Shown piece after piece: positions 20,496-35,897 of a stretch of 64,000 nucleotides of DNA (position 1 is its first letter; every line of letters starts with the position of its first letter). The notes under the pieces are model-generated. The model was not told the DNA's origin. It did no database searches and was given only the letters and a program-made list of their open reading frames with translations. The stretch is from an uncultured Gemmatimonadales bacterium (GTDB taxonomy: Bacteria > Gemmatimonadota > Gemmatimonadetes > Longimicrobiales > RSA9): positions 245,855-309,854 of the forward strand of contig CAWAYJ010000017.1 of the NCBI GenBank assembly GCA_963786235.1, given 5' to 3'. A program made the translations under genes and the position numbers.

Positions 20496-21065
20496 ATGGA
20501 GAATGATATCATGGCGACGAAGGCGTCAGGACGGTTCGTGCTGCGGCTGGAGCCGGGGTTGCATGCGGCGTTGCGGCGGGCGGCGGCGGCGGCGGGCGTG
20601 TCGCTCAACGAGTACTGCGCGCGGAAGCTGTCGGCGCCGGGTTCGGATGCGACGGGCGCGGCGGGTGCGATCGTGGCACGTGCGGCGGAAACGGTCGGGG
20701 ACGGCCTTGTCGGGGTTGTGGCGTTCGGCTCGTGGGCGCGCGGCGAGGAGCGGTCGGACTCGGACCTGGACATCCTGATCGTGGTGGATCGGCGCGTGAA
20801 GTTGAATCGTTCGGTCTACCGCGGCTGGGATTCCGGGGACCTGGAGGTGGGCGGGCTGCGGGTGGAGCCGCACATCGTGCATCTGCCGGAGCCATCGGAT
20901 CGGCCGTCGTCGTTGTGGCTGGAGGTGGCGGTGGACGGTGTGGTGCTGTTCGAGCGAGGGCTGGAGGTTTCGCGGCATCTGGCGCGGGTCCGGTCGTTCA
21001 TCGCGGAGGGTGGGGCGCGGCGGAAGTGGTCGCACGGTCAGCCGTACTGGGTCGAGGCGGCGTGA
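20496..21065 (+). CDS. RHH/HicB-like domain fused to a minimal nucleotidyltransferase (MNT) domain
   Basis: The N-terminus GRFVLRLEPGLHAALRRAAAAAGVSLNEYC resembles HicB/Arc-like antitoxins. It is followed by the MNT motif GSWARGEERSDSDLDILIVVD. The start may instead be ATG 20511. Confidence 0.7.
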   Translation: MENDIMATKASGRFVLRLEPGLHAALRRAAAAAGVSLNEYCARKLSAPGSDATGAAGAIVARAAETVGDGLVGVVAFGSWARGEERSDSDLDILIVVDRRVKLNRSVYRGWDSGDLEVGGLRVEPHIVHLPEPSDRPSSLWLEVAVDGVVLFERGLEVSRHLARVRSFIAEGGARRKWSHGQPYWVEAA

Positions 21066-21484
21066 TGCGGAACCCGGCGCTGGCGCGCGACCACATGCGG
21101 CGGGCATCGGCGCGGCTTCGCGCGCTGGACGTTCTGTACGAGGCGGAGAGCTGGGCCGACGTAGTCCGCGAATCGCAGGAAGTCGTGGAGCTTACGCTCA
21201 AGGCGTTGCTGCGTGTCGCGGGCGTTGAACCGCCGCGCAGCCACGACGTATCGGACGTTCTGCTCACGGAACGCGAGCGGCTGCCGGACCCGGTGCGGAC
21301 CCACGTCGAGAAACTGGCGGAAGCGTCGCGGCAGCTCCGCCGGGACCGCGAGCTGGCGTTCTACGGCGCGGAGGATCTGACGCCGTCGGGCTTCTACGCG
21401 AAGGCGGATGCCGATCGTGCGCGATCGAGCGCGAGGATGGCGGTGGAGCTGGTCGCGCCGCACGTGGCTTCGCCGGACTCATGA
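21065..21484 (+). CDS. HEPN domain protein, partner of the MNT
   Basis: The start overlaps the MNT stop by 1 nt (TGATG). The protein is helical, with ...LRRDRELAFYG... typical of PF05168-type HEPN domains. Confidence 0.7.
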   Translation: MRNPALARDHMRRASARLRALDVLYEAESWADVVRESQEVVELTLKALLRVAGVEPPRSHDVSDVLLTERERLPDPVRTHVEKLAEASRQLRRDRELAFYGAEDLTPSGFYAKADADRARSSARMAVELVAPHVASPDS

Positions 21485-21534
21485 GGCCCGGCAGCCGGCG
21501 ATCTCGCATCAGCCGACCCGTGATCCGGGCTGTT

Positions 21535-21712
21535 GTCGGCGATAAACGCGTTGAGGTCAGGTCTGGTGCCTCAAACAGGTAGGTGATTCAAACCGTTGCT
21601 GCTTCTGGCCTTCCACGAGCGTGGTGCGGACCTCGACCCCCTCCAGGAGGGCCCCGACGATCTCCAGACGCGTTTCGTCGTCTAGGTCGAGGTCCCGGTA
21701 GCGGCCCAGCGC
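21535..21712 (-). pseudogene. 3'-terminal remnant of a large serine recombinase gene (homologous to 49140..49315)
   Basis: Nucleotide similarity, read by eye, to the 3' end of 49147..49830. It encodes ..DLDLDDETRLEIVGALLEGVEVRTTLVEGQKQQRF.. on the minus strand. No upstream part of the gene is present. Confidence 0.6.
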
Positions 21713-22052
21713 CGGCCGCTGCCCACTCGCAGGTAGTTACAGGTCGACTACCGCCCGGCTCGTGAAGGTCATCGGTGGAGTGGATGGTTGGGTGGCGAAG
21801 ATCGTCAAGACGCGTACAGGCGACCAGTAGGATGGAGCAAACGGCCAGCTCGGATCAGTACCTCGATACATTGTCGCCTGAGGCATAGATCGTCGGGCGT
21901 CCCTGGCAACCATGATAAGGTCGTCGTGCGGACGACGAGCACAAGCTGCCCGATCCGCTCGCGGTACGGCGCCGTGGGCTTGTTGAGCTTTACCGGTTGC
22001 GGCCAAGCCATGCGGCCGCAGCCGACGTCGTTGTTCTGTCCCGATCGGACGA

Positions 22053-22229
22053 TCAGTCACAACAGGGGATTGGCGGATCGCCCATTCCACAGCCGGGCGA
22101 GACGCAGGCGATTTCGCCGTTGTCGAATCCAAACTTCTTCGTGCCCGACTCACCCGCCATCACTGTTGCTGCCGTGATGGCAACCGCGACTACAGCGGCC
22201 ACGATTGATCCTGCGATCCCTCTCCTCAT
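22053..22229 (-). CDS. Small secreted Cys-rich peptide, 58 aa; not in the ORF track
   Basis: My own translation: MRRGIAGSIVAAVVAVAITAATVMAGESGTKKFGFDNGEIACVSPGCGMGDPPIPCCD. A GAGGAGGG SD lies just upstream. It sits 35 nt downstream of the thioredoxin-like gene and shares the C-x-PGC...CCD pattern with 34793..34993. Confidence 0.55.
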   Translation of the reverse strand: MRRGIAGSIVAAVVAVAITAATVMAGESGTKKFGFDNGEIACVSPGCGMGDPPIPCCD

Positions 22230-22264
22230 CCAGCCCTCCTCTCAGGTGATTGTTGCCCGCACGG

Positions 22265-22780
22265 TCAGCGCCCGGTTCTGGCCATCGGGTCCAAGCTCAC
22301 GTCCAGAAGCTGCACCACAGAGTCACGCACTAGAGCAAGCCTCGCTGCATTTCCATCGAGCTGCGTGATCAGGATGGCCTTATCTGCGAGATTTCGACGC
22401 AGCCGCTCCACGCCCGGATCCGATGCAAGCGGCAACTGTACCTTCTCCCGACGAAGGAACAAGCAAACGGCCTGTGTGTCCTCCACGGCTGTAAGCACAA
22501 CGGCGATCTGCCCACCCCGTCGTTTCTCCAGCTCGATCTCTCTCAAGAGACGACCCACGTTCCAGCATTGGTAGCACGTTTCAGCCGTCACAACGATGAT
22601 TTTCCGAGGAAAGTTGGCATTCCCCGCATGGCCGCAACCGTTTCCGGCGAGATCCGCTCGGAGCACGGACCCCAAGGATTCTGCCACAGCACTTGGAAGA
22701 TCATCTTTCGGCTCGGAGTTAGCCACCAGGGCCAGCGCACCGGCCCCGAGGATTGCGGGAACGAAATGCCACCTACTCAC
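22265..22780 (-). CDS. Thioredoxin-fold CxxC protein, exported (paralog of 34215..34709)
   Basis: N-terminal hydrophobic segment WHFVPAILGAGALALVANS. The motif IIVVTAETCYQCWNVG aligns with ILVVTKEQCLGCANVG. The GTG start at 22780 overlaps the propeller stop by 8 nt. Confidence 0.6.
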   Translation of the reverse strand: MSRWHFVPAILGAGALALVANSEPKDDLPSAVAESLGSVLRADLAGNGCGHAGNANFPRKIIVVTAETCYQCWNVGRLLREIELEKRRGGQIAVVLTAVEDTQAVCLFLRREKVQLPLASDPGVERLRRNLADKAILITQLDGNAARLALVRDSVVQLLDVSLDPMARTGR

Positions 22781-23855
22781 GATCCACTGAGCGAAGGCTA
22801 TAGAGCACGAACTGCAGGGTGTTTCCCGTGGGATCCGCGATCGCCACCAGCGTATCGGCAAAAGCACCGATCACCGCTGGCGCGTTCGTCAGGGTATGCC
22901 ACTCTCCCGCGGGGCTTCGTATGGCAAGACTGATTCGATCTCCGTCGTTTCTGCTGCCGCGGACAAACGGCACGGCTACGTGGGATCCCACCTGCAACGG
23001 TGCCAGCGGTCCGTCGAACGCGCGCCGCCACTCCAGAAAGTCCAGAGCGTTCGCGAGGTTGTCGGGTTGGTCTTGGGGAGGTGCGTAGTTCACCAGCGGA
23101 ATCCCAATGCGGGAAGTACTTCCTGTGCCTGGATCGAAGGTCCACGCGGTGTCGCTGACTTCGGGTAGGATCCAGATCGTATCGTTGATGACTCCAATCG
23201 ATTGGCCGACGAAGATGTTCCAGGCCGCTCGTGCAGCTGCGGATTTCACTTCAATCGGCACGAGGCGGTCGAGGATGTTGCCATGACCGTCGAGGTGAGC
23301 GAGAGCGTTTCCACCATCGGTGAAGGACCGGACCGATGCAAACACGCTACCATTCTCGCTTGCAACCAGGCCGAACACACCGCTCAGACCGTCGAGGAGA
23401 ATCGTCTCCTCAACGGTTCCGTCCGTGAGATTCAGCAAGCTCAGTCGGTTCGTCGCGGAACCGCCGACGTACGCGTGCGCCTGGCCCACGAGTACGAGGT
23501 ATTGAGCCGATGGGAACTCGGAGGGGCCATGGCCTCTCCGGCCAATTACGTGCTGCAGTGTCCCGTCTGCCGCGTAAACCTTGACGTTCGACTCTGAGTA
23601 GTCGGCGACAATGAAACGGCCCGAAGGATCCACTTTCAGGTCGGTGATGCGCACAAGCAGGGCCGAGTCCGGTTGTTCGGGCGTTACGGTCCGTGCCAGC
23701 TCGAACATGTCGGCGAATGGCTGAATGAGACCTGTTCTCTGTTGAGGCGGTGCCGGGATCCCTTGGTCGGTGGATTCGGAGCATGCTAAACCGATGGAGA
23801 GCGGCGTCAGAAGCAGGAGGGCACATAGGGCATGGTTGCTCCACTGATTCCTCAT
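22773..23855 (-). CDS. NHL-like 6-bladed beta-propeller lipoprotein (paralog 2)
   Basis: Lipobox LSIGLAC, the motif GRRGHGPSEF, and the C-terminal strand ..LQFVLYSLRS. The start was chosen at internal Met 23855. Confidence 0.75.
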   Translation of the reverse strand: MRNQWSNHALCALLLLTPLSIGLACSESTDQGIPAPPQQRTGLIQPFADMFELARTVTPEQPDSALLVRITDLKVDPSGRFIVADYSESNVKVYAADGTLQHVIGRRGHGPSEFPSAQYLVLVGQAHAYVGGSATNRLSLLNLTDGTVEETILLDGLSGVFGLVASENGSVFASVRSFTDGGNALAHLDGHGNILDRLVPIEVKSAAARAAWNIFVGQSIGVINDTIWILPEVSDTAWTFDPGTGSTSRIGIPLVNYAPPQDQPDNLANALDFLEWRRAFDGPLAPLQVGSHVAVPFVRGSRNDGDRISLAIRSPAGEWHTLTNAPAVIGAFADTLVAIADPTGNTLQFVLYSLRSVDRE

Positions 23856-24173
23856 CTGGCGGAACACCGGTGTGTGGGCAGACGAATCACGTAGTCCGCC
23901 TTCAGGGATAGTATAAGGCACGTTGTCCAACTGGACATTATCTTGAGCCGACTCGAACGTCAAGCACTGCATTTCCGCACATTGTCTGCGGGACTGTGCG
24001 TATTCTTCTGTAGTATTTTGTCGATTCTGCGCATACAGGTTCGCAGGGTCGGTCTATGCCTCAACCGACGCCGGGTCGCGCAGCCTCTGGGCGAAATCGG
24101 TGATCGTGCTGCCATGATGGCCTTTCGGATGTGGTAGCCGTCAAACGACGTCGTTGGATCGGCATCGGCGCTC

Positions 24174-24953
24174 TCACTCAAGTGAGTTCGACCAGACGCG
24201 GAAGTGGTCTGGCGGATGCCGGCGGTCGCAGCAGGGGCACTGAACTGCCAGGAGTGGCGTAGGGGATTCCCCCACGCAGGCTCGCTCCCTTCCCGCTGGC
24301 GCGCTCGAGCGGTTGTCGCAGATTGGCACACTGGAGTTGGCCGCTGACGTGTCGTGGCTGTTTCTGGCACCATCGATCTGTAGATTGGATCGGGTGGCGC
24401 CGTTCACGGGGTCCTGCCTGATGGCTCGGAGAATGCCCGGAACCTCCCGGCGGCTCCTTGCATCGAGTTTGTCCCGGACGATCTTGACGTGATTGCTGGC
24501 GGTATTCAGGGCGATTCCGAGAGCTTGGGCGATCTCGCGGTCGGACCGCCGTTCGTTCAGTAGAAGTGCTACCTGCGCCTGCTGGCGTGTAAGTTGGAAA
24601 CGGCGGCGAAGGTCGCGTTGGTCGGGCACGGAACGGGCCGGCTGGATGACAACGACGTACCTTGCACCGGTGCACGGAGTGATCTCGTGAACCTCCACGT
24701 CGCACACATCACCCCGAACGGTTCGCTGATCCCTGAAGACCCGACGGGCGCCACCCGCTCCTTCGAGGTGATCCAGGAATCCGGCGGGCAGAATCGCCTC
24801 AAGACCCTCATCCACAAGGTCGTCCAGAACATCGGAGGGCGACTCCAAGCGCATCAGCAGCGGTCCCGAGGTTATGGCCCGGACGAATAGATCGCAGTAC
24901 CGGCTGACAATTTGCTCGAGGACGGTTACCTGGAGTTTCGCCACATAACCCAT
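24174..24953 (-). CDS. LuxR/GerE-family HTH transcriptional regulator
   Basis: LTRQQAQVALLLNERRSDREIAQALGIALNTASNHVKIVRDKL is a canonical GerE HTH. The ORF then runs on for a long Cys-containing tail that may be read-through. It is divergent from the SARP gene, with a 22-nt gap between the two starts. Confidence 0.75.
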   Translation of the reverse strand: MGYVAKLQVTVLEQIVSRYCDLFVRAITSGPLLMRLESPSDVLDDLVDEGLEAILPAGFLDHLEGAGGARRVFRDQRTVRGDVCDVEVHEITPCTGARYVVVIQPARSVPDQRDLRRRFQLTRQQAQVALLLNERRSDREIAQALGIALNTASNHVKIVRDKLDARSRREVPGILRAIRQDPVNGATRSNLQIDGARNSHDTSAANSSVPICDNRSSAPAGRERACVGESPTPLLAVQCPCCDRRHPPDHFRVWSNSLE

Positions 24954-24975
24954 TGCTACGAGGCGACATGGAGAG

Positions 24976-27402
24976 ATGGATAACAGCCGGGTAATCCGCC
25001 TCGAGCTCCTCGGCCCGGTCCGCCTGCTTGCCGCTGACGGACGAAGCCTTGATGCCGTCGTGCGGCAGCCGAAGCGCTTGGCGATTCTGACGTATCTGGT
25101 GGTTCACGACGGCTTCGTACGCAGGGACACTCTGCTTGCGCTCGGCTGGCCTGAATCCTCGGATCGGGCGGCGCGCCGTGCTCTGAATCAGACCGTCCAT
25201 TTCCTGCGATCGATGCTGGGACCCGATGCCATCGAACGCCGAGGCTCTGGGGAGGTGGCGGTCTCGCGGCAGTGGGTATCGAGCGACATCGGGGATCTCC
25301 ACCGGTCCGCCCAGGAAGGACGTCTCGGCGACGCGATCGCTCTCTATCGCGGGGACCTCCTGCAGGGTGTGCACGTCACGGATTCCGTCGAGCTCTCGCA
25401 ATGGCTCGATACGGCCCGCGACCGGTTCCGGCGGGAAGCTGTCGAGGCGGCCTGCAGGCACGCGGAGGATCTGACCGGCTCGGGCCGGTTCAAGGCCGCC
25501 GAACAGGCAGCAAGGAAAGCGCTGGACATCGAGCCCACCAGTGAGTTGGCCGTCCAGGTCTTGGTGCGGGCACTCCTGCAAACGGGGGCACGAGCGGACG
25601 CGCTCAAGGCCCTGAGGGAATTCCGCGACCGCCTGGAATCGGAGTACGGGATCGAGCCATCGGCTGAGACCGTGCGCATGGTGGAAGCGGCCAGCGAGAC
25701 AGGACCGCCAGGTGAGGCGATTCCAGAGCCGGAGTCGAATCCGATCGAGAACACCGCAGAGGACGCGCCGAACCCACCCGCGGAGCCGCTGGCGGGTCCA
25801 CCGAAGCAGCGCCCAAGTCGACTGCTCCGGAGGCTGGCAGGTTTCGCGATTCTTCTGATTTCGGCTCTGCTCCTTGGCCGCGCCGCGATCCGGCACGGGA
25901 CCGAGGCTACACCGAGTGCGCGAGCCCACCCCGCGAATCGCGTCGCCGTCTTGTACCTCCAACCTCGCGGTGATCTCGGGGATCTGAACTACCTGCCTGA
26001 TGCACTCACCGAAGCGGTTATCGACCAACTCAGCACGACCGATGGGCTCGAGGTCATTGGCCAGTCTGATGTCCGGTGGTTTCAGAGAGACCCGCAACCA
26101 GCCGCCGCCATCGCGGAGGCTTTGAACGTCGGCACCGTCGTGGTCGGCACGCTGTCGCGGCAGGGCGATGACGTACGAACGAGAGTACAGATCGTAGGAG
26201 CCGACGACGGTGCTGTCCAGAGCGTGATGGATATCACCCGTTCGGCTGTGGCCCCGATGGACCTGGTCGCGTTTTGTGTCGACTCGATCACCGCTGGAAT
26301 CCGAGGAGCGCTCGGGCGTTCGGTCAATATGACACAGTGGCATGCCGGCACGAATGACGAGCGAGTCTGGGAACTCGTGCAACGTGCGGGCGCTTTGCGC
26401 CGCACTGCGGTCTCTCTCGCTACGCATGGGGAGCTTGGCAACGTGCCACGCGTTTATGCGGCCGCGGACTCGCTGCTTTCCGTGGCGTCGTCGGCAGACC
26501 GTCGCTGGAGTGTTCCCGATCTGCTTCGAGCGCAACTCGCAGAGGAATCGGCGATCTACTGCATGGCCGTCCCGGAATGCGGCCCACAAACGAGCCTGGA
26601 ATCGGTCGAGCGAGGCATGAGCTTCGCACGCGAGGCTATCGCCCGGCAGCCGGACCATTCCGAGAGTCATACAGAGCTTGGCACACTCTTCTTTCTGGCG
26701 TCGCAGTTGGTTGATTCCACCGCCGCGACCGTGTATCTCGACTCCGCGAAGGAGGCGTTCCTTGCGGCCATCGCTCAAGCCCCGGGGAATGCGATGGCGT
26801 GGAGCCGGTTGTCGGCTGTTCAGTATTCCCGGGGTGAATTCGCGACTGCATACGCTTCGGCGCGGGAGGCCTATCGAGCCGACGCCTACCTATCGAACCG
26901 CGCGGAGGTCTTGGGACGTTTGTTTCTGACGAGTCTGCACCTCGGAGCGGACGACGATGCACGGTACTGGTGCCGGGAGATCGAAGCGACGTCCGGAGGT
27001 ACTTGGCCGGTGGCCTTCTGCCAACTTTGCCTGCTTGCATTTGTGGACTCGGTGATGCCGGATCCCGACTCGGCTTGGAGTCTCGTGCGTGCGCACGCGC
27101 GCGTAGATCTTTCGGCCAAGGTCATGATGCCGAGGTTGGAGATGCTGGTGGCGGCCGTTCTGGGACGGGTCGGAATGACCGATAGCGCGCGGGTCCTGAT
27201 CCGGAGCGGCCTCCGGGATGCCCGGGGCGATCCGGATTTCGATCTTTTCCGTGCCGGCGCCCTGGTTGCCATCGGTGCCCGGGACTCCGCCGTTACTCTG
27301 CTCGAGCAGTATGTCCATGCAAACCCCGCCCAGCGGTCGGCCGTTCTCCATTGGCGCTGGTTTGAGGCGCTCGGGCGCAGCCCCCTCGAAGATTCCCGCT
27401 AG
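24976..27402 (+). CDS. Membrane-anchored SARP/BTAD-family regulator with periplasmic and TPR regions
   Basis: N-terminal wHTH plus BTAD (IRLELLGPVRLLAADGRSL...ALYRGDLLQG...LESEYGIEPSAET), one TM segment (FAILLISALLLG), then a TolB_N-like segment and a TPR-like C-terminus. 808 aa. Confidence 0.8.
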   Translation: MDNSRVIRLELLGPVRLLAADGRSLDAVVRQPKRLAILTYLVVHDGFVRRDTLLALGWPESSDRAARRALNQTVHFLRSMLGPDAIERRGSGEVAVSRQWVSSDIGDLHRSAQEGRLGDAIALYRGDLLQGVHVTDSVELSQWLDTARDRFRREAVEAACRHAEDLTGSGRFKAAEQAARKALDIEPTSELAVQVLVRALLQTGARADALKALREFRDRLESEYGIEPSAETVRMVEAASETGPPGEAIPEPESNPIENTAEDAPNPPAEPLAGPPKQRPSRLLRRLAGFAILLISALLLGRAAIRHGTEATPSARAHPANRVAVLYLQPRGDLGDLNYLPDALTEAVIDQLSTTDGLEVIGQSDVRWFQRDPQPAAAIAEALNVGTVVVGTLSRQGDDVRTRVQIVGADDGAVQSVMDITRSAVAPMDLVAFCVDSITAGIRGALGRSVNMTQWHAGTNDERVWELVQRAGALRRTAVSLATHGELGNVPRVYAAADSLLSVASSADRRWSVPDLLRAQLAEESAIYCMAVPECGPQTSLESVERGMSFAREAIARQPDHSESHTELGTLFFLASQLVDSTAATVYLDSAKEAFLAAIAQAPGNAMAWSRLSAVQYSRGEFATAYASAREAYRADAYLSNRAEVLGRLFLTSLHLGADDDARYWCREIEATSGGTWPVAFCQLCLLAFVDSVMPDPDSAWSLVRAHARVDLSAKVMMPRLEMLVAAVLGRVGMTDSARVLIRSGLRDARGDPDFDLFRAGALVAIGARDSAVTLLEQYVHANPAQRSAVLHWRWFEALGRSPLEDSR

Positions 27403-27559
27403 AGAGCCCTGCAGAACCGGAGCGCGCGCTTCTCCGGCAGTAAAGCCAAAAAGATAGCCAATTCTTGGTCATGCGCGGTGTCCTGCCCGAGTGCATGGTA
27501 GGAGCGACCGTCTGGAATGAGCCGGGCGGGCTTCACCCGATTCCAACCCGGAGCGGACC

Positions 27560-27715
27560 ATGCGAACTCGTCGTGCGCAGGTGCTCGCGCTGTTTGCCGT
27601 CCTAGCCATCGGCCTCCTTTCGGGCTGCAGGAAGGATATCCTGGAGCCACCGCCGTCGCCCGAGTCGGGTCCGTGCTACTGGATCGGCACTCAGTACATC
27701 TGTATTCCCGGCTGA
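27560..27715 (+). CDS. Small lipoprotein-like ORF, 51 aa; not in the ORF track
   Basis: My own translation: MRTRRAQVLALFAVLAIGLLSGCRKDILEPPPSPESGPCYWIGTQYICIPG. Lipobox LLSGC, GGAG 6 nt upstream, and the stop lies 4 nt before the C1-like gene. A conserved paralog is at 60571..60723. Confidence 0.6.
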   Translation: MRTRRAQVLALFAVLAIGLLSGCRKDILEPPPSPESGPCYWIGTQYICIPG

Positions 27716-27719
27716 AGCA

Positions 27720-28751
27720 ATGATCCGGTTTCAATCGGGCGAATCAAGCCGGCCCATGGACCAGGGTCTTTCTGGGCGGCCGGCCGAGTCTCGGCGCATT
27801 CGCGACTCGTCCCCCAGGGATCCAGCGAAGGCGATACCAGTACGGCGTCTGGCGGCGCGCGGGATGGGCTGGGTACGGGACATTCCGAGCATCCGGGATT
27901 ACGGGCCGTTCCATGAGTACGTGTCCGTCAAGAAGGCGCAGCTGGGACAGAGCGACTCCATTCTCGACATGCTCGCGGAAACCGATGCTCTGGACTCCGA
28001 GCTGGATCTCCCAACTTCCGTTGACCTCCGTCAGTGGTTTCCGCCGGCAGACGACCAAGGCCCTCTGGGATCGAGCGCGGTGCACGCCGCGATCGGGCTC
28101 CTCGCGTATTTCGAGTACCGGGCGTGGGGCCGGCATGTGGATCTATCAAGCCGCTTCCTGTACAAGACCGCGCGGAAGCTCATGCAGGTTCACGGAGATG
28201 CCGGAGCGAGTCCCCGGAGCGTGCTGGACGCTCTCGTTCGGTTTGGGGCGCCACCGGAGCGACATTGGCCTCCCAATGTTGCGGCCTTCGACGAGGAACC
28301 ACCGGCGTTCTGCTACGGATACGCGCAGGACTACCAGGCGCTTTCCTACTACAGACTCGACTCCGGCAGGACGAACGGCGAGGAGCTGCTCGAGCGGATC
28401 AAGCGTCACCTGAACTCAGGCGTCCCGCTTCTTTTCGGCTTCACGGTGTTCCGGTCGATCCAGCAGGACGGCAATGTCCCGTTTCCCAACTCGGACGAGC
28501 AAGTGCTCGGAGGGCAGGTCGTTGTCGCGCTCGGCTATGACGACCGGAAGCTCATACGGAATCCGGCGCCCGTCGGACCAGAGACCCGCGGAGCCATTCT
28601 GATCCGGAGTTCCTGGGGGGAGGAGTGGGGGGAGCACGGCTACGGGTGGCTGCCATATCAATATGTACTTGGCGGGCTTGCCGCTGATTGGTGGTCGCTG
28701 ATTAGGTACGAGTGGATGGAGACGGGGGAGTTCCAGCGGCAAGACCAATGA
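27720..28751 (+). CDS. Papain-like (peptidase C1) homolog with substituted catalytic residues; likely a non-peptidase homolog
   Basis: Family motifs are present: GWVRDIPSIRDY, DLRQWFPPADDQGPLGSS, GYDD, SSWGEEWGEHGYGWLPY. The canonical GSC is GSS (S119) and the canonical GGH is GGQ (Q266). No signal peptide. Confidence 0.8.
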   Translation: MIRFQSGESSRPMDQGLSGRPAESRRIRDSSPRDPAKAIPVRRLAARGMGWVRDIPSIRDYGPFHEYVSVKKAQLGQSDSILDMLAETDALDSELDLPTSVDLRQWFPPADDQGPLGSSAVHAAIGLLAYFEYRAWGRHVDLSSRFLYKTARKLMQVHGDAGASPRSVLDALVRFGAPPERHWPPNVAAFDEEPPAFCYGYAQDYQALSYYRLDSGRTNGEELLERIKRHLNSGVPLLFGFTVFRSIQQDGNVPFPNSDEQVLGGQVVVALGYDDRKLIRNPAPVGPETRGAILIRSSWGEEWGEHGYGWLPYQYVLGGLAADWWSLIRYEWMETGEFQRQDQ

Positions 28752-28861
28752 GAGGACTCAAGACGTACGCCAGTCCGCCGAAAGGACGGCAGGCCATTGG
28801 AGCACGCCCGATCGAGGGGCCCAGGCCGGTATGTTGTTCAACTGCATCGAGGTGGTGCATC

Positions 28862-29695
28862 ATGCGAGTTGCAGTCTATTGTCCACGGGGACTCAGCGAG
28901 TCGATCAAGCCAGCACTCGGATTCCCTGCAGAGTTCCACGATTCGTGGTCAGCGTTTGAGGAAGCGGTTCGCAGCGCAGATTGTGGCGTGTCCGTCATCG
29001 AGTGGTTGAGGGAATCGCCCGGAGCACCGGAATTGAAGGGGCTTCGCAACTCCCACCCGCAGACCGGCTTGGTCTTGGTGACAAGATTCGACCGTGAGAA
29101 CGGAGGCCTTCTCCCAGACACGGCCGATAGGTTCGTGTGGCTCGCAGAGGTCGAAGAGCACTTGAATCCTGCGGTAACGGAAGCGGGGCGCGGGCTGTGT
29201 GCGCGCTTGGAACGATACATCCGGATCCAGCTACCTCGTTCTGGAGCCGGGCGCCTCGGCAACATCCGCGACGCACTGCTGGTGCTTATCGATGTCGACC
29301 CGCCGGCAAGGACCGTGAAGGAGTGGTGCGCTCTCCGAGCCGTGTCATGTTCTGTTTCGACGCTACAAAAGGGGTTCGGAAACACATTCCAGTCCGGTAT
29401 CACACCCTTGTTCATCCTGGAAGTCGTGCGCTTGTACAAAGCGCTCGACGAATTCCCGAATGCCAGCTCGTGGAGGAAGCTTGCTTTGGAGGCAGGACCG
29501 AAGTGGTATGAAGACGGAAAACTCAGTCCCAAAACGCTGTCCAACACGGCTGCCCGGCTACTTGGGCAGGTCCGCGTACCCGCAGGGACCGGGAGACACA
29601 ATGGCGTATCGATGTGGGGCCCGCCGTTGGCCGAGAGACCCAGCTCCATAGACAGGCGCTCGTTGTTACACGCGCTCGTGGGGTTGCTTTGCTAG
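28862..29695 (+). CDS. Receiver-like plus AraC-like HTH regulator (paralog of 13043 and 61864)
   Basis: MRVAVYCPRGLSESIKP...VSVIEWL...LVLVTR... followed by ARTVKEWCALRAVSCSVSTLQKGFGNTFQSGITPLFILEVVRLYKAL. Confidence 0.6.
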   Translation: MRVAVYCPRGLSESIKPALGFPAEFHDSWSAFEEAVRSADCGVSVIEWLRESPGAPELKGLRNSHPQTGLVLVTRFDRENGGLLPDTADRFVWLAEVEEHLNPAVTEAGRGLCARLERYIRIQLPRSGAGRLGNIRDALLVLIDVDPPARTVKEWCALRAVSCSVSTLQKGFGNTFQSGITPLFILEVVRLYKALDEFPNASSWRKLALEAGPKWYEDGKLSPKTLSNTAARLLGQVRVPAGTGRHNGVSMWGPPLAERPSSIDRRSLLHALVGLLC

Positions 29696-30006
29696 CCGGT
29701 GCCGCGCGTATACTCGGGAACTGGTGTTCGCACATCCGCTTCGCGATACCGCCGAGTCGGCATTTGGTCCCGATTCATCCGCTTTTGGGCATAGTGCCAT
29801 GGTTCAGGTGAAGGTAATTTGGGAATGCACCTTTGGGGCCCCCGAGGAAAGAGGAAAGATCGAACTGGAGTGGCATGGATCGGGCTGAGCGACTGCCGAA
29901 GTCGTGTGTTGTAGAATACACTCCAGATCTTCCTCGGAAGTTGAGCATAGACTTGGCCACACGAGGTGCGGCCGAAGATGATCCCCTGACCAATGGAGGA
30001 TACGCC

Positions 30007-30513
30007 GTGTCTACCCGAACCGTCATCCGGTTTTCGCGCTCGCCATGGCATGTTGGTGTGGCGGTGTTGCTTGGACTGTTCGCCGGTGCTCAGGGGCTCC
30101 AAGCGCAGTCCCACCCGCAGAGCGTGACGGAGTGTTGGGACTGCCGAGTAGAGTACTACCAGCCGCTCGACTGTTGGATTGACTCTTGCTACTGGACGTC
30201 GGGCGCCGGATGGAGTAACTGTAGCCAGTTCGGAGATTGCCAGTCTGAAGAAACCTGCCAAGGCAATGGACACGGTTGCGAAGGCGGTTTGGCGATCCTG
30301 TTGGATGGCCGTTCTGCAGTCGGGCTCTCAGCCACCCAATTGCATGCGATTCTGGCGGAGGCCGGTCCCGACGAGATGGCGAGGATGGCATGGTCCACCG
30401 AGGGCGACACCGAGTATCTGAAACTATCGTGCAACGGCACGGTGATCCACGCCGAATATTCACGCGCAGAGACCGCGCGCCTTCGGCTTCGCACGCATCG
30501 GCTAGACATCTAA
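30007..30513 (+). CDS. Secreted Cys/His-rich protein, family member B
   Basis: GTG start with GGAGGA 6 nt upstream. Signal ...FAGAQGLQAQ. Twelve Cys, including CWDC. The C-terminal domain has YLKLSCNGTVIHAEYS. The stop overlaps the next start (TAATG). Confidence 0.6.
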   Translation: MSTRTVIRFSRSPWHVGVAVLLGLFAGAQGLQAQSHPQSVTECWDCRVEYYQPLDCWIDSCYWTSGAGWSNCSQFGDCQSEETCQGNGHGCEGGLAILLDGRSAVGLSATQLHAILAEAGPDEMARMAWSTEGDTEYLKLSCNGTVIHAEYSRAETARLRLRTHRLDI

Positions 30514-31745
30514 TGCCGGCGCTAGCTGTGTTCCGGGCCGCCGGGGCGGTGGCGGACCGAGCTGCGGCCGCGGCCGGAATCCTCGGCTTCGTCCTTGCGC
30601 CGGTGGGAGCCGCGGCGCAGTCGTTCCTGAGGGCTCTGCCGGCCCGAACGGCTCACTTGGAGATATCGCTGGGTGCCTTCGACGACCCGGTGCTCGCGTT
30701 TTCGAGGGTCTCCGGTGTCACAATGGACCGGGACGGGCGGATTTACGTGCTTCAGTCCACCGAACGCGAGGTTACGGTCCTGAATCCCAATGGAACCCTA
30801 TACCAGCGCATTGGCCGCAGGGGCCAGGGGCCCGGTGAATTCGAGGGACCGAATGCACTCGGCTGGCGGGGCGACACCTTGTGGGTAACGGACATCGCGC
30901 AGCAGCGGGTGTCCTGGTTCTACCAGGGACAACACTTGCGCACGAACCGGTTTGTGCCGGTTCGTCTGGAGCGGAGTGCAATGCCCGGCGCCCAAATCGC
31001 TACGCAATTGCCGATGGCGGACGGCTCCTACTTCACAATTATGTCGTGGAGGTTCGAGCGGCCGGCCGGCTCACCAGAGAATTACTTGCCAATCATTCGT
31101 ACCACGGCTGATGCAAGAACGGAAACGGTCGTAGCCCGGTTGCAGGAGTCCTTCCCGTTCCGGCTCATCATTGAAATACCGAACGGAAGATCCTACGGGT
31201 CACCTCTGTTCTCCGATTTTCCTCTACAAACCACGAGCACCTCCGGCGAGCGCTATGCGATCGTAGATCGGCCATTCGCCAAAGGGCCGCAGGTTCGCAT
31301 CCGTTTGACAGTACTCGAGGCATCAGGTGACACGGCGTACTCGCGCGTCTACATGGTCGACACTGAACCGCTTACCGACCAGCAGTGGAATGCGAGGCTC
31401 CAAGAAGCGATCGCGCGTGTGAACCGGCCCGATCGGCCCGCTCCGGGCTGGGGACTCCGCGAACTGGAAAAGGCCTCACGTAGACCAAGCCACTGGCCGG
31501 CGGCCACCGGGGTGATTCTGGGGTCGGATTTGTCGGTGTGGATCGGACTGGCCGACCTGCCGTGGCGGGCGGACCGGGACTGGGCAGTTCTCGACAGTCA
31601 AGGCACCCCGCTCTTCAAGGTTAGTCTTCCTCGCGGCTTTTACCCCTCCACGGCGTCGTCGGCCAACATGGTCTGCGGAGTGTGGAACGACGAGCTAAAT
31701 GTACCCCACGTACAACTGTACCGGTTGGGCGAGGTCGGGGGCTGA
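30513..31745 (+). CDS. NHL-like 6-bladed beta-propeller protein (paralog 3)
   Basis: Signal ...APVGAAAQ, the motif GRRGQGPGEFEGP, and the C-terminal ..PHVQLYRLGE. It is translationally coupled on both sides. Confidence 0.75.
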   Translation: MPALAVFRAAGAVADRAAAAAGILGFVLAPVGAAAQSFLRALPARTAHLEISLGAFDDPVLAFSRVSGVTMDRDGRIYVLQSTEREVTVLNPNGTLYQRIGRRGQGPGEFEGPNALGWRGDTLWVTDIAQQRVSWFYQGQHLRTNRFVPVRLERSAMPGAQIATQLPMADGSYFTIMSWRFERPAGSPENYLPIIRTTADARTETVVARLQESFPFRLIIEIPNGRSYGSPLFSDFPLQTTSTSGERYAIVDRPFAKGPQVRIRLTVLEASGDTAYSRVYMVDTEPLTDQQWNARLQEAIARVNRPDRPAPGWGLRELEKASRRPSHWPAATGVILGSDLSVWIGLADLPWRADRDWAVLDSQGTPLFKVSLPRGFYPSTASSANMVCGVWNDELNVPHVQLYRLGEVGG

Positions 31746-32638
31746 TGAGCGGCGCAGCCCGACGAGAACTATGCCGGTCGGTCACGTGGCTTATGCTGTT
31801 TCCGGGTCCGGCCATGGCACAAGCGAAGCCAGCATTGACGCTGACAGAGGCTTGGTCCGTCCGCTGGCCCGAAAGGAGCAGGATATCGAGAGTCGTTCCA
31901 GGCGTGCAGATGAGAATCGCTATCCAGAGTGGCTCTTGGATCTACATGCTGAAGGACGCGCTTCCTCCCGTCCCGATCGGAAATTTCGAGATACTAGATG
32001 TCGTCGGATTGGCCGCCAGCGAGGCCGGCCTGGAACTCGTGGACCGCCGTACCCACCGCATCGTGCGAACGGACACGGCGGGGCGGGTCACATCCTGGAC
32101 GCCGGTCCCCACCGCCAGCGACGATGAGATCGCGTCGGGCGCATCGACTCCATGTGGTTGGGCGATCGGGTTGAGAGCGAACGGTGGCACCGGCAACCGT
32201 CTCCTGTTCCTGGACTGGGCGGAGCCAAAGAACCACCCGCTCGAACTTCCCTTTGCTCCGCGCCGACTAACTGCGACGGGAAAGTTGTTGGCGATAAGCG
32301 AGGACACGGCCCCCTATCGCGTGGCGCTCGTGAACTGCGACTCAACCCAGGTGATTACAATCGATACTTCCGAGGTCCAGGCGGATCTGGACATGCAGAC
32401 ATGGCGCCCGCTCCCGGCGTTCGTCGTCAACACGCAAGTTCTGCAGACATGGGTGGACGCGGGAAGCGACCGCCGGCGATTCGCATCCTACGGGCTGGAC
32501 GGGACGGTGCTCAGGTGGGTCGATCTCAGCGCACCCCTGACGCTAGTCGCCGCTTTCCCCTCGGGTTTCGTGATCGGTCTCCGCGGCATCGGAGATCTCG
32601 AGGTCGTAGGGTTCACGTTGAGTGCACAGGGGCGATAA
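31745..32638 (+). CDS. Secreted hypothetical protein, probably a divergent or degenerate member of the propeller family (paralog 4)
   Basis: The start overlaps the previous stop (TGATG). Signal ...GPAMAQA. It lacks the GPGEF motif but ends with the family-like strand DLEVVGFTLSAQGR. Confidence 0.5.
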   Translation: MSGAARRELCRSVTWLMLFPGPAMAQAKPALTLTEAWSVRWPERSRISRVVPGVQMRIAIQSGSWIYMLKDALPPVPIGNFEILDVVGLAASEAGLELVDRRTHRIVRTDTAGRVTSWTPVPTASDDEIASGASTPCGWAIGLRANGGTGNRLLFLDWAEPKNHPLELPFAPRRLTATGKLLAISEDTAPYRVALVNCDSTQVITIDTSEVQADLDMQTWRPLPAFVVNTQVLQTWVDAGSDRRRFASYGLDGTVLRWVDLSAPLTLVAAFPSGFVIGLRGIGDLEVVGFTLSAQGR

Positions 32639-33043
32639 TAGCGAGAGGGGCCAAACTAACAGGTGTGGTTGCCGGGTTTGGATCAGTTGGCGGTTGCATA
32701 CTCAAACGCACCGCAAAGGCCTCTGAAGATTATCAGATGTACCGCGTGAGCAATCGACGAATGGCTGGGAACAGCGGAAGAGTCTTGGCGTCGACGATTC
32801 AGTCGGCTTTGTCGGGCAGGGTAGCCGTAAGTACTCTTCTCGCGATAGCCGGCGGCCAGCCGGCGCGGCGAAAGTCGGAACGCGTGCCATGTTGGCTTAT
32901 GGCCGTGCTATCATCCCAGCCGAAGACCCTGCGAAGCAACTTGACGCTGAACAGACAGGCCGTTGAACGTTCATTCATTCTTGAACTGGCTATTTCTGCC
33001 CTGTGCAATGCGCAAAGTGATCGCGCGATGAAAGGGACTGCCA

Positions 33044-34192
33044 ATGCAAGCCGCTACGCACCAGCGCCGGTCAAAGTGCCGAGGCGTTCTCACCTTCCGG
33101 TTCGGTCCGATCACTTGCGCTTTGCTGGTTGTCGGAGCGATTGGCTGTGCAGAACCACCGGCGGCGTCGCAGGTCGCATCGCGGACAGCAGACGTGCAAT
33201 CCGCGTCCGAGGACTCGCTTCCGGCCGTCGAAATCGAAGCGCTTATTGCATTTGACTCAGCATACATGGCAATCGACTCGTTCACGCTCAAGCAAGACGA
33301 CGAGAACGTGGTTGCAAGAGTTGCCAATGTGGTTATCGATGAACACCGACATGTCGTCTTCGTAGTTGACGCCTCCGAGCGAAACGTGAAGGAATTCGAC
33401 TTCGGCGGCAGGTTGATTAAGGTGTACGGAAGAGCCGGTGCGGGCCCTGGCGAATTCCGGACCCCAGAGGACGGAGCCATCGACCCGCTTGGGCGGCTTG
33501 TGGTGTTCGACGGACTAGCGAATCGTGTAACGGTGTTCCTGCCAGACAGCGCGCCGCGAGTTGTGCAGGTACATGGCATGACAAAGGTACGCGACTTCAC
33601 GATCAGTGCGTCAGGGACATATCTCTTTGTGGCGGCACTGGCGAGCAATGAAGACGTCCTCTTTGAGACGAGTGAGGATGGCACGATCCTTCAGGAAGCC
33701 CTGCCGTTGGCGCACGTCGTCCCGGAAGGTGAAACCGACGGCCCACTGTGGACCTTTCCGCGTACGTTCTTTCTCAGTGCGCGCCAGGACACGGCATTAG
33801 TAATCTGCAGTCTATTGCCTCGCATTTGGAGAGTATCCCTCGCCGATCATTCAGTTGTCCATCAGGATGTCGTGTTTCCGGGGTATTTACCCCCACGGAG
33901 CCCTCCGCGAGATAAGAGCACCAGCACAGCGGATGTCGTACAGTGGTTCTATTCCCGACACCTGACCGCATTCCTAACAACGACGAGGAAAGAGGTCTTT
34001 TGGCCATTCATGCATGGAGAAGTCATGCAGAACAATCCGATGGTTGTTGTGCATCAAGGACCCGACGGGAAATGGGAAGCCCTCGACGGGGCACCAATCA
34101 TATTGAAGCCATTTGCTGACGGGCGTCTGCTCGTCTACAGGGACCCGACGGCGGATGCGCCGCGCTTTGTCATTTATCGGAGGCGACCATGA
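33044..34192 (+). CDS. NHL-like 6-bladed beta-propeller lipoprotein (paralog 5)
   Basis: Lipobox VVGAIGC, the motif GRAGAGPGEFRTP, and the C-terminal ..PRFVIYRRRP. Confidence 0.75.
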   Translation: MQAATHQRRSKCRGVLTFRFGPITCALLVVGAIGCAEPPAASQVASRTADVQSASEDSLPAVEIEALIAFDSAYMAIDSFTLKQDDENVVARVANVVIDEHRHVVFVVDASERNVKEFDFGGRLIKVYGRAGAGPGEFRTPEDGAIDPLGRLVVFDGLANRVTVFLPDSAPRVVQVHGMTKVRDFTISASGTYLFVAALASNEDVLFETSEDGTILQEALPLAHVVPEGETDGPLWTFPRTFFLSARQDTALVICSLLPRIWRVSLADHSVVHQDVVFPGYLPPRSPPRDKSTSTADVVQWFYSRHLTAFLTTTRKEVFWPFMHGEVMQNNPMVVVHQGPDGKWEALDGAPIILKPFADGRLLVYRDPTADAPRFVIYRRRP

Positions 34193-34214
34193 GGGGGCCG
34201 TTGTCTTGGTTGTG

Positions 34215-34709
34215 GTGAAACAGGTGACGGTTGTTGGAGTGCTTGTCGGGCAAATTGCAGGTGCGGCTTGTGCTCGCGAGCCGGAGGGATCCGGGACCCT
34301 CGTTGCGAGTGCGCTTGCGGCTGTCGGCCGCCATGGCGCACATCCAGTTTGTGGTGGACGGGCTCGCTTGGATGTGCATGGACGGCCGATCCTAGTCGTG
34401 ACAAAGGAGCAGTGCCTAGGGTGTGCGAACGTCGGCTTCGAAGCGCGGAAATGGCTCCGAACGGACGACGGCAAAGTCCTTGGACTTACACTTGCGACGC
34501 CGGCTGGCGACACGGCTATGGTATGCCGGTACGCCGCCATGGAACGTCTAGGCGTTCCAGTTGTTGCGCTAAGCGGAATGCCGGAGGCTGCGGTGCATTT
34601 TGCTGAGCGACATCTTGTGCTTATATCGGGGACTGATGGCGGCGTTCGGTGGGATACTGCCCAAACGGCGGATTCGATATTTGAACGGCTTGGAAGGATT
34701 GCTCACTGA
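34215..34709 (+). CDS. Thioredoxin-fold CxxC protein, exported (paralog of 22265..22780)
   Basis: GTG start; alternatives are 34206 and 34212. Signal/lipobox-like VVGVLVGQIAGAAC, then ILVVTKEQCLGCANVG. It lies directly downstream of propeller 33044..34192. Confidence 0.6.
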   Translation: MKQVTVVGVLVGQIAGAACAREPEGSGTLVASALAAVGRHGAHPVCGGRARLDVHGRPILVVTKEQCLGCANVGFEARKWLRTDDGKVLGLTLATPAGDTAMVCRYAAMERLGVPVVALSGMPEAAVHFAERHLVLISGTDGGVRWDTAQTADSIFERLGRIAH

Positions 34710-34792
34710 GAGTTGTAGGCGTGGGGAAGAGGTTGCCAGCTAAGCCAACGCGGGTGGCATCCGGCATTGAGACGAACGAAGGGAGGCTGACG

Positions 34793-34993
34793 ATGAAGAA
34801 GATTGTTCTCTCTGTTGTGTTTGCCGGGCTTGCTGCGCTCGGAGCAATGAGCTATTCGGCAGGCAGAGTGGCTGCGGCTGACGAGTGGCCTTTGGATCAC
34901 CCATTCGGCCGCGATTGTGAGCCGGGTTGTTACACGGTTTGTGGACCGCTCTGCTTTTGCTGCGATCAGAATATCTGTGGGCAGGGCTGTTAG
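34793..34993 (+). CDS. Small secreted Cys-rich peptide, 66 aa
   Basis: MKKIVLSVVFAGLAALGAMSYSAGRVAAADEWPLDHPFGRDCEPGCYTVCGPLCFCCDQNICGQGC. GGGAGG lies 6 nt upstream. There are eight Cys in the last 25 residues. The start is the internal Met of track ORF 34721..34993. Confidence 0.65.
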   Translation: MKKIVLSVVFAGLAALGAMSYSAGRVAAADEWPLDHPFGRDCEPGCYTVCGPLCFCCDQNICGQGC

Positions 34994-35029
34994 CAAGTCT
35001 ATGAGCCATGTAGTACGCGTCGTGCGAAA

Positions 35030-35341
35030 ATAGGATGCACCGAATGCTCCCCGCGTTGGCTGGTATGACGTTCGACCGCCCGCACGTAGTCACGGTTGCG
35101 AATAGCCGCCGGTGTAGCCGGCGGCCTGAATCTCCTCGAGGAGTCGGACCGAGGACAGCTCCGGGTACGCCTCGAGTCGGTGGCCGATGATCGCCTTGTA
35201 GGGATCCAGCTTCGTCGGCCGCGGCGGCCAGGACCGGTAGCGCGGCGCCTCGTCCAGATCCCGGTCGAGTTCGCCGGCCGCGATCCAGCGGGTGATCGTC
35301 CGCCGGTCGATGCCCAGTTGCCGGGCGATCGCTCGCTTCTG
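35030..35341 (-). mobile_element. istA: IS21-family istA 5' remnant (HTH region); truncated and frameshifted
   Basis: The minus strand encodes ..KRAIARQLGIDRRTITRWIAAGELDRD...LDPYKAIIGHRLEAYPELSSVRLLEEIQAAGYTGGYS, then a stop. RDYVRAVER continues in another frame. An in-frame stop directly precedes QKRAIA. Confidence 0.7.
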
Positions 35342-35371
35342 TCATCCATCATCTGAAATTCCCCACCCCGG

Positions 35372-35680
35372 TCACGTTGTAGGGACGGGTTCATGGGCCT
35401 GGGCGGACCGCAGGAGCCCGGCCCGGCGTTTCTCTTTCAGGCGGTAGCTCTCTCCTTTGATGTTGACGGTGGTGGCGTGGTGGAGCAGCCGGTCGAGGAT
35501 GGCGCTGGCGATGATGGTGTCGCCGAAGACGTCGCCCCAGGCGCCGAGGCTCTGGTTGCTGGTGAGCGGGATGGAGCCCCGTTCGTAGCGGCGGGAGACG
35601 AGCTGGAAGAAGAGGTTTGCGCCCTGGCGGTCGATGGGGATGTAGCCGATCTCGTCGATGATCAGGAGCTCAGTGGTGGG
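35372..35680 (-). mobile_element. istB: IS21-family istB 3' remnant (from Walker B to the C-terminus)
   Basis: The minus strand encodes ELLIIDEIGYIPIDRQGANLFFQLVSRRYERGSIPLTSNQSLGAWGDVFGDTIIASAILDRLLHHATTVNIKGESYRLKEKRRAG. The N-terminal half, including Walker A, is absent. Confidence 0.75.
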
Positions 35681-35817
35681 GTGGCTAGGTTTCCGCGGCC
35701 CATTGCCCGCCGCCGGGATCGCGGAAGCTCCGGCGGATTTGTGCCAATATTTGTGCAGAAAAAGGCCGTATCTGGCCGTAGGTGGTCAGGGCACTTCAGA
35801 GCGAACATTCAGCATTT

Positions 35818-35897
35818 CAACGAATTACGCTCCGACCCGCAGCTCCTGAAGCGGCCTCCGGAGCCGAAGATTACAGGTTCGAATCCTGCCCTGCGAC
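35818..35897 (+). other. tRNA-Arg(CCG)-like 3' fragment within a repeated intergenic element; not an intact tRNA
   Basis: Anticodon-arm-like cggc-CTCCGGA-gccg at 35852..35866 and T-arm-like caGGTTCGAATCCtg at 35874..35888. There is no matching 5' acceptor or D arm. The left ~50 nt resemble 48375..48427. Confidence 0.35.

Follow-up and report, generated by a model that had tools for sequence, protein, structure and literature searches.

Do two open reading frames (ORFs) of about 50 codons, each lying directly in front of a gene related to the family C1 peptidases, encode a real lipoprotein, and what might such a peptide do beside such a neighbour? The question is raised by a 64,000-nucleotide stretch of DNA from an uncultured Gemmatimonadales bacterium (assembly GCA_963786235.1, contig CAWAYJ010000017.1), hereafter the window, in which a sequence-only reading had proposed a pair of unlisted mini-lipoprotein genes. 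Both ORFs are very probably genuine genes. Their product is found only with a catalytically dead clade of C1A peptidase homologues, and it is encoded by the first gene of a module in which the order is peptide, pseudo-peptidase and a gene here termed X.

Two mini-lipoprotein genes

The features on which the argument rests are the following.
27560-27715, forward strand: mini-lipoprotein gene copy 1, 51 amino acids (aa), with a predicted signal peptide at 1-22, the lipobox L-S-G-C23 and a Pro-rich linker.
C-terminus of copy 1: Cys39-x8-Cys48 hairpin with the end I-P-G; the ratio of nonsynonymous to synonymous substitution (dN/dS) is 0.28-0.44 against WI-type relatives.
60571-60723, forward strand: mini-lipoprotein gene copy 2, 50 aa, with the lipobox V-A-G-C23, an EPPPS linker and the end C-F-W-I-E-G-Q-Y-I-C-I-P-G.
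27550-27553 (copy 1) and 60561-60564 (copy 2), forward strand: Shine-Dalgarno sequence GGAG, 6 nt 5' of the ATG, as read from the sequence.

Both ORFs were found where they had been reported and with the translations given, the stop codons ending at 27715 and 60723, and the GGAG does stand exactly 6 nt before the ATG in each copy. Their description as unlisted has to be qualified, as the exact sequences of both already appear, unnamed, among the proteins of NCBI/ENA assemblies (P0001 for copy 1 and P0123 for copy 2). An identical copy 2 peptide occurs in addition at the locus L013, with a different left flank.

Relatives were sought by a word-indexed search of 5.8 billion proteins and by a full HMMER scan of 1.84 billion cluster representatives, which together yielded five distinct family members, the window peptides included: P0001, P0123, P0002 (82% identical to copy 1), P0124 (MRSRWARVTITIALTAAACLAGCRNSPLEPPPPAPGEVCVWIGGQLICYQG) and P0127 (MLAKRLAMFAALLTIVLSVATGCRKDLVAPGDDPVCTMINGVLVCAP). 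With copy 2 as the query, the scan of the representatives recovered the copy-1-like P0002 at E 2.6e-8 and the third member P0124 at E 5.3e-7. P0125 and P0126, also matched in the representative search, are repetitive low-complexity proteins and were rejected as relatives. The frame, start codon, Shine-Dalgarno sequence, lipobox and Cys spacing are kept across the five diverged sequences, which are present in at least 4 sample accessions (ENA, JGI, Logan).

The substitutions between these sequences follow the codons. In a codon-level comparison dN/dS is 0.24-0.48 within the W-I-type subfamily and 0.13-0.47 over the mature part, and third positions hold 27 of the 55 changes between copy 1 and copy 2 and 13 of the 21 between copy 1 and L001; this dN/dS and third-position excess uphold the proposal that the differences between the copies reflect coding. 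Synonymous sites are near saturation between copy 1 and copy 2 (proportion of synonymous differences, pS, 0.60), and only synonymous differences separate the last seven codons, QYICIPG, of copy 1, copy 2 and L001. Towards the most divergent member, P0127, dN/dS approaches 1 because all sites are saturated there. Each of the six aligned loci retains a Shine-Dalgarno sequence (GGAG, GGGGA or GGGAGG) at a distance of 5-6 nt from the ATG.

The predicted export signal is similarly specific. A lipoprotein rule of the PROSITE PS51257 type requires K or R in the first 7 residues, an uncharged hydrophobic region (h-region) and the lipobox [LIVMFWSTAG](2)-[LIVMFYSTAGCQ]-[AGS]-C with the Cys at position 15-35. 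All five family members satisfy it, and among the 528 ATG-initiated ORFs of 30-100 aa in the window only five do, copies 1 and 2 being two of them. A scan of the window and 17 loci for a lipobox combined with C-x8-C near the stop returned the expected positions plus a single junk match. It is because of the codon-aware substitutions, the kept Shine-Dalgarno sequence, the lipoprotein rule and the specificity of the motif scan that the two ORFs are concluded, with high confidence, to be real mini-lipoprotein genes.

Anatomy of the predicted peptide

The precursors comprise 47-51 aa, and the mature part 25-29 residues when counted from the lipidated Cys (24-28 after it), in support of the earlier estimates of about 50 aa for the pre-lipoprotein and about 28 for its mature part. 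Residues 1-22 would form a Sec-type signal in which 2-3 basic residues precede a variable hydrophobic core of about 12 residues. This h-region is free to vary while the lipobox Gly-Cys and the following Arg (G-C-R) stay invariant; Cys23 is the predicted lipidation site, with the Arg next to it. The other invariants of the family are Met1, one linker Pro, the C-x8-C pair and an Ile at loop position 3. The tether, rich in Pro and acidic residues, spans 15 residues in copy 1 and 14 in copy 2, and the shortest subtype has one of 11. Next comes a hairpin with the consensus C-[YFVT]-[WM]-I-x-x-[QV]-[YL]-[IV]-C, whose two central loop positions (the turn pair) are GT, EG, GD, GG or NG, and the second Cys is followed by a tail of 2-3 residues (IPG, YQG or AP). 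The net charge of the mature peptide is -1 to -3.

The lipobox, the EPPPS linker and the C-(Y/F)-W-I-x-x-Q-Y-I-C-I-P-G tail that had been listed as shared are indeed present in both window copies. The claim holds for this pair but not for the whole family, since the C-terminal Gly and the W-I-x-x-Q-Y string are absent from one subtype, which ends in C-T-M-I-N-G-V-L-V-C-A-P and so has no W, Q, Y or terminal Gly.

An AlphaFold2 (AF2) model built on a four-sequence alignment predicts a helix at 2-23, a coil and a beta-hairpin with strands at 39-42 and 45-48, the mean predicted local distance difference test (pLDDT) score being about 74 over residues 41-50. Cys39 and Cys48 face each other in the modelled hairpin, and a disulfide between them is therefore plausible.

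Two further ideas on the peptide were considered and rejected. Export of the downstream protein as a Tat 'hitch-hiker' was set aside, given that an RR pair is present in 3 of 5 peptides, a full Tat motif in none of the 5, and that the h-regions are Sec-like in hydrophobicity. The use of the C-terminal Gly as an amidation donor, with a PAL-like propeller, was also discarded: no copper monooxygenase domain was found, and one subtype is without the terminal Gly.

The downstream gene encodes a catalytically dead C1A pseudo-peptidase

27720-28751 (longest ORF; conserved core from the ATG at 27864), forward strand: C1A pseudo-peptidase copy 1, with Cys replaced by Ser, His by Gln and Asn by Ser.
60745-61767 (core from the ATG at 60880), forward strand: C1A pseudo-peptidase copy 2, with Cys replaced by Ser and His by Gln.

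The label C1-like given to these genes is correct as regards homology, both copies matching Pfam PF00112 (Peptidase_C1) at 26 and 32.4 bits against a cutoff of 20.7, but the loss of the catalytic residues had been missed. The nearest PDB entry is xylellain (3ois, E 3.6e-20), whose GSC faces GSS and whose GGH faces GGQ in the alignment. The columns of the catalytic dyad were compared over 123 sequences, namely the two window copies and 121 database homologues. The catalytic Cys is replaced by Ser or Asn, and the His by Gln, in 8 of 8 public sequences of the clade and in both window copies; Cys, His and Asn are retained in 113 of the 115 other homologues. These proteins thus belong to C1A by descent but lack the Cys and His of an active enzyme. 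The oxyanion-hole Gln (DQG) and the Trp of SWG are still present in the dead clade, and its core, from the GMGW motif onwards, evolves at a dN/dS (omega) of 0.10-0.16 with a strong third-position bias. Judged from these alignments, the neighbour of the peptide is a xylellain-type short C1A homologue without the catalytic dyad, kept under strong purifying selection. Hydropathy indicated neither a signal peptide nor a transmembrane (TM) segment in the pseudo-peptidase.

The relation to the xylellain-type C1A peptidases (3ois; PMC10380794) is evident from 45-54% identity to many entries named 'C1A family cysteine protease' and from a shared N-terminal segment, G-x-G-W-x-x-D-x-P-x-x-R-D. The difference lies in the dyad, lost in every peptide-linked member, and in the upstream mini-lipoprotein, which is missing from the active homologues examined.

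Linkage of peptide and pseudo-peptidase

The position of the peptide directly upstream of the C1-like gene was borne out in all 8 peptide loci that have this gene (the two in the window, L001, L003, L004, L005, L013 and L014), the peptide adjoining the pseudo-peptidase on its 5' side in each. At L011 the peptide is followed by an IS256-type transposase, with no peptidase remnant. The sequence-only reading would have been refuted had the motif not been conserved in front of orthologous C1-like genes; the peptide is in fact kept upstream of orthologues more than 70% identical. Homologues that retain the dyad (45-54% identity; among them sequences from Methanospirillum and several metagenomes) have no upstream mini-lipoprotein ORF, and the linkage is therefore with the dead clade and not with C1 peptidases generally.

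The start of the downstream gene is less certain than its identity. Between the peptide stop and the GMGW motif (27716-27863 and 60724-60879 in the window, with equivalents in L001, L003 and L004) the frame stays open and in phase in three length classes of 44, 47 and 65 codons. The same stretch has an omega of 0.8-2.1 and no codon-position bias, and no DNA similarity is detectable across it between the window copies. The stretch may be an N-terminal tail, unconstrained and probably disordered, or else a spacer that is not translated and stays open by chance. The true start of the pseudo-peptidase may be at 27864 and 60880, the former being the start chosen by the public gene caller for copy 1. 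The distances of 4 nt and 21 nt between stop and start are right for the longest downstream ORFs (from 27720 and 60745) but depend on this uncertain start, and translational coupling is therefore not established. At the stop/start junction no conserved RNA structure was detected (consensus -8.9 kcal/mol; single-sequence z -1.6).

Rarity of the family

No relative was found in 185,579 GTDB species representatives, searched both by the peptidase and by the DNA pattern of the peptide. Among genome contigs, 12 matches to the back-translated pattern C-x-W-I-x-x-Q-x-I-C-x-x-G-stop were dismissed as chance, having no signal peptide and in some cases in-frame stops. JGI metagenome contigs contained no dead-type peptidase and only 3 dyad-retaining homologues, and a plasmid collection contained no peptide and only peptidases at about 40% identity. 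Neither peptide matched a Pfam family at E 0.01 or better, Lysis_col included. The sole match in NCBIfam was TrbK at E 0.099, confined to the signal-peptide region and far below the family cutoff. PHROGs gave no match for the peptide, nor any lysis family in the module, and PADLOC-DB gave no defence-model match for the peptide, the pseudo-peptidase, X, the Cys-rich protein or the propellers of the surrounding islands. Rfam and tRNA scans of the window were likewise without matches.

The upstream element and the membrane-spanning regulator

27454-27502, forward strand: conserved upstream element copy 1, ATAGCCAATTcTTGGTCATGCGC-N16-GCATGGTAGG, a putative promoter or operator.
60467-60514, forward strand: conserved upstream element copy 2, from the six-locus alignment.
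24976-27402, forward strand: membrane-spanning BTAD regulator, 808 aa, from Pfam BTAD and TPR matches and hydropathy.
57924-59561 and 59601-60380, forward strand: second BTAD regulator, split, with a scrambled stretch between the conserved parts.

The element has the layout ATAGCCAATTnTTGGTCATGCGC ... GCATGGTRG, the second part following about 16-18 nt on. Within it GGTCATGCGC is invariant across six aligned loci (the equivalents in L001, L003, L004 and L011 included), and the palindrome CCAAnnnTTGG has arms that co-vary (CCAA/TTGG, CCAG/CTGG, CCCA/TGGG). The element travels with the peptide. Its exact 10-mer occurs in the window at 27467 and 60480 only and gives no sign of a regulon there. 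No match to a sigma-70 consensus was seen in the element, and the surroundings of the ORF showed neither a sigma-70 promoter nor a terminator consensus. The element could serve as an operator or an unusual promoter, or form a 5' RNA hairpin.

The regulator (806-826 aa) combines a winged helix-turn-helix and BTAD part, cytoplasmic, with a TM helix at about 282-306 and a predicted periplasmic part that is FlgO/TolB_N-like and carries TPR repeats, a topology like that of ToxR and CadC. It lies directly 5' of the peptide at both window copies, L003 and L011. A frameshift that left a pseudogene, or else an error of assembly, probably accounts for the split second copy.

Gene X and the mobile islands

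28862-29695, forward strand: gene X copy 1, 277 aa, without a Pfam or PDB match.
61864-62652, forward strand: gene X copy 2, a homologue of X copy 1.

X, of about 245-280 aa, comes after the pseudo-peptidase in 7 of the 8 loci with this gene, among them both window copies, L003, L004, L005 and L013. It had no Pfam match even at E 5, no sequence match in the PDB, no signal peptide and no TM segment. An AF2 model from four sequences reached a pLDDT of 56.6, and Foldseek returned nothing for it at E below 0.28, weak response-regulator matches not being significant. By eye only, X might be read as a receiver-like N-terminal half joined to a C-terminal half that is helical and AraC-HTH-like. Copies of X that lack the peptide lie at 13043-13834 (reverse strand) and, in part, at 51864-52307, and every occurrence of X is followed by genes for secreted six-bladed propellers of the NHL/DUF5128 type.

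The solo X at 13043-13834 (reverse strand) is 68% identical to X copy 2 and is followed by a gene for another secreted NHL-type propeller at 11207-12367 (reverse strand) with the motif GRSGNGPGEL; this unit lies between direct repeats of about 2 kb (9214-11180 and 13897-16320, 88-97% identical) that include an AbiEii-like toxin ORF (14636-15454). Six further NHL/DUF5128-like propellers are encoded at 22773-23972 (reverse strand), 30513-31745, 33044-34192, 50319-51554, 52559-53761 and 55089-56234. Several propeller proteins have apparent lipobox-type signals, most carry G-R-x-G-x-G-P-G-E-F/Y/L, and matches to ScyF/ScyE models are weak. Among the propeller genes, 29875-30513 and 53697-54320 encode Cys-rich proteins with apparent N-terminal signals and no family match. 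DsbA-like genes recur downstream in L001, L003, L005 and L013, and with the Cys-rich proteins they suggest a set of disulfide-rich secreted proteins in the islands.

The modules of the window stand in two islands, 21500-36000 and 49100-64000, of about 0.60 guanine-plus-cytosine (GC) content against about 0.69 in the rest. A 172-nt repeat (21532-21702 and 49136-49307, 84% identical) is common to the left edges of both, and a serine-recombinase integrase is encoded at the edge of the second (49147-50661, reverse strand); the islands are therefore probably integrated mobile elements. A duplicated block (24437-29025 and 57396-62027) is 75-82% identical between them, and insertion sequence (IS) elements or primase-type genes occur in other loci. 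Two observations concern the flanks. A 725-nt repeat (39261-39985 and 56650-57374, 95% identical) connects the second LuxR-type regulator gene, on its left side, with the high-GC region, and 20511-21484, just left of the first island boundary, holds a nucleotidyltransferase/HEPN pair that is probably toxin-antitoxin-like.

At a finer scale, the peptide cassette moves INDEPENDENTLY: L003 and L004, compared around 7820-8000 of each locus, share some 200 nt of promoter and peptide sequence at 100% identity and are 58-93% identical downstream, and L001 (9922-11265, compared with the window copies) joins a copy-1-like peptide to a copy-2-like spacer. The alignments indicate mosaic recombination, the cassette of promoter and peptide being exchanged independently of the gene that follows it. 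A pherotype-like co-evolution of the peptide with the pseudo-peptidase had been entertained, and is contradicted by this mosaic pattern.

A possible ligand of the pseudo-peptidase, and its rivals

The most likely reading of the module, a speculative one held only tentatively, is that the peptide is a ligand of the groove of the dead peptidase. The precursor would be exported post-translationally, because 51 aa are too short to leave the ribosome before release, then lipidated and cleaved at the predicted Cys23 by Lgt and Lsp, and oxidized to the Cys39-Cys48 disulfide, DsbA genes being nearby. The retained substrate groove of the dead peptidase, re-used for binding, would take the peptide as its cognate ligand. 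In one version the pseudo-peptidase would act in the cytoplasm as an escort or gatekeeper of an aggregation-prone precursor made from the same mRNA; in the other it would be the receptor of the peptide and pass a signal to X. The full picture, in which a dyad-less papain-fold enzyme now serves a linked, lipid-anchored, disulfide-cyclised hairpin as its dedicated receptor or escort and forms with X a new peptide-signalling or peptide-export module, carried on mobile islands and diversifying by cassette swaps, is quite unlikely to hold.

Several results weigh against a groove ligand. The compartments do not agree, as the mature peptide is predicted to be extracytoplasmic and the pseudo-peptidase and X have neither signal nor TM segment. 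The two partners do not co-evolve, the core of the copy 2 peptidase being 87-89% identical to those of L003 and L004 and the peptide only 43%. To this are added the recombination of the promoter-plus-peptide cassette apart from the downstream gene and the uncertain translational coupling, the stretch 3' of the peptide stop being without protein-level constraint.

The use of a peptidase fold for binding alone has precedents. The C39-like domain of HlyB has a peptidase fold without catalysis and is used as a binder; as in the present protein, catalytic residues are lost and the domain is still selected, presumably for ligand binding, but it belongs to another peptidase clan (C39) and no dedicated mini-lipoprotein gene is known to be paired with it. 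The same likeness, and the same difference, apply to the pseudoproteases CspA and CspC of C. difficile, of the subtilisin clan, which serve as receptors or binders (PMC7200643). The nearest described arrangement is that of the potempins of Tannerella forsythia and the KLIKK peptidases (PMC9890683), where a lipoprotein ORF also lies immediately 5' of each of several paralogous peptidase-family genes and the downstream product is likewise the expected physical partner. Each potempin folds into a beta-barrel of 98-132 residues and inhibits a peptidase that is active and secreted; the mature peptide described here has 25-29 residues, a tether and one hairpin instead of a barrel, and no sequence similarity to them, and its C1A neighbour has no Cys/His dyad and no signal peptide and is not an active secreted peptidase.

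The rival that survives best, though itself unlikely, places the peptide entirely in the envelope, where, as a ligand or co-sensor independent of the cytoplasmic pseudo-peptidase, it would bind either the periplasmic TPR domain of the adjacent regulator, much as small partners of the ToxR/ToxS type do, or an NHL-propeller lipoprotein. TPR domains and beta-propellers often bind short peptides. The regulator offers one TM helix and a predicted periplasmic C-terminal TPR domain and stands directly 5' of the peptide at the four positions given above, and the propeller lipoproteins and DsbA recur across loci. The regulator is, however, not beside the peptide in L001, L004, L005 and L013, its second window copy is broken, its domain-wise identities do not track the peptide type, and the strict link of the peptide to the dead peptidase would be left unexplained.

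It is improbable that the ORF is instead a cis-acting leader, the C-terminus of which would stall the ribosome at or near the stop, as in SecM, VemP and MifM or in TnaC and NAP-stop peptides, and thereby control translation of the pseudo-peptidase. The arrest peptides SecM, VemP, MifM, ApdA/ApdP and NAP-stop (PMC7897499, PMC10987492) share with it a small upstream ORF, an N-terminal export or localisation signal and a conserved C-terminus with Pro-Gly or Pro just before the next gene. One subtype ends in C-A-P-stop, much like the Bacteroidota arrest peptides of the NSP-stop/NAP-stop kind (PMC10987492), W-I...P and the EPPPS run recall the SecM motif FxxxxWIxxxxGIRAGP (PMC10987492), and the frame 3' of the stop is preserved without amino-acid constraint. 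Two of the four screening criteria of PMC10987492 fail, however: the downstream gene is not sec or yidC or other localisation machinery, and the spacer of 24-28 residues is too short, not exceeding 30. There is no RAPP-like motif and no conserved RNA hairpin that would mask the downstream start or Shine-Dalgarno sequence. The invariant features are the lipobox Cys and the two loop Cys and not a motif that interacts with the ribosomal tunnel, W, Q and Y being replaced in one subtype.

Equally improbable is a bioactive lipopeptide, whether lytic, of the release type, antimicrobial, a bacteriocin or pheromone, or a precursor of a ribosomally synthesized and post-translationally modified peptide (RiPP), with the neighbours serving immunity, release or regulation. 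Colicin lysis proteins, entericidins A and B, the o-spanin Rz1 of lambda and the entry-exclusion protein TrbK have precursors of 40-60 aa with a lipobox and mature parts of about 20-40 aa, and are often borne by mobile elements; Rz1 is Pro-rich and uses a Cys. The peptide resembles colicin lysis proteins and entericidins in size and Rz1 in its Pro-rich tether; its modelled hairpin is hydrophobic and would be disulfide-stapled, and its setting is one of mobile low-GC islands with integrase and IS elements and of several diverging paralogues per metagenome. On the other hand, no homology to any of these small lipoproteins was found, no Lysis_col or other Pfam, NCBIfam, PHROG or PADLOC family is matched, and the C-x8-C hairpin is not known as a feature of the colicin lysis, entericidin, Rz1 or TrbK families. 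The modules contain no colicin or colicin-like cargo, lysis cassette, type IV secretion system, holin, endolysin, i-spanin, RiPP-modifying enzyme or transporter; where Rz1-like o-spanins sit in a lysis cassette, the neighbours here are the pseudo-peptidase and X. The mature peptide is acidic (-1 to -3), unlike cationic membrane-active hairpins, and C-terminal amidation is unlikely because not every member has the terminal Gly and a copper monooxygenase is lacking.

That the conserved ORF is no gene at all, merely regulatory DNA or RNA or a chance frame of the kind common at 62-70% GC, is very improbable, as its substitutions are codon-aware, unlike those of the adjacent unconstrained stretch, its frame, start and signals persist in five diverged sequences, and no Rfam family or conserved RNA fold was found.

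Significance

The pair of peptide and pseudo-peptidase is very rare and has not been described previously, within the broad class of small lipoproteins paired with peptidase-family proteins. Its importance is limited because the family is extremely rare, with five distinct sequences in some 15 billion public proteins and none in the species-representative genomes. The micro-gene family of 47-51 codons belongs to a size class often missed by annotation pipelines and family databases, and its coding evidence is unusually clean; with it is paired a clear bacterial C1A pseudo-peptidase under strong selection. If the peptide is indeed a ligand of the pseudo-peptidase groove, the module would provide a compact and tractable example of an enzyme turning into a peptide-binding protein, and it might represent a new route for peptide signalling or for the export of small lipoproteins in a poorly studied high-GC lineage.

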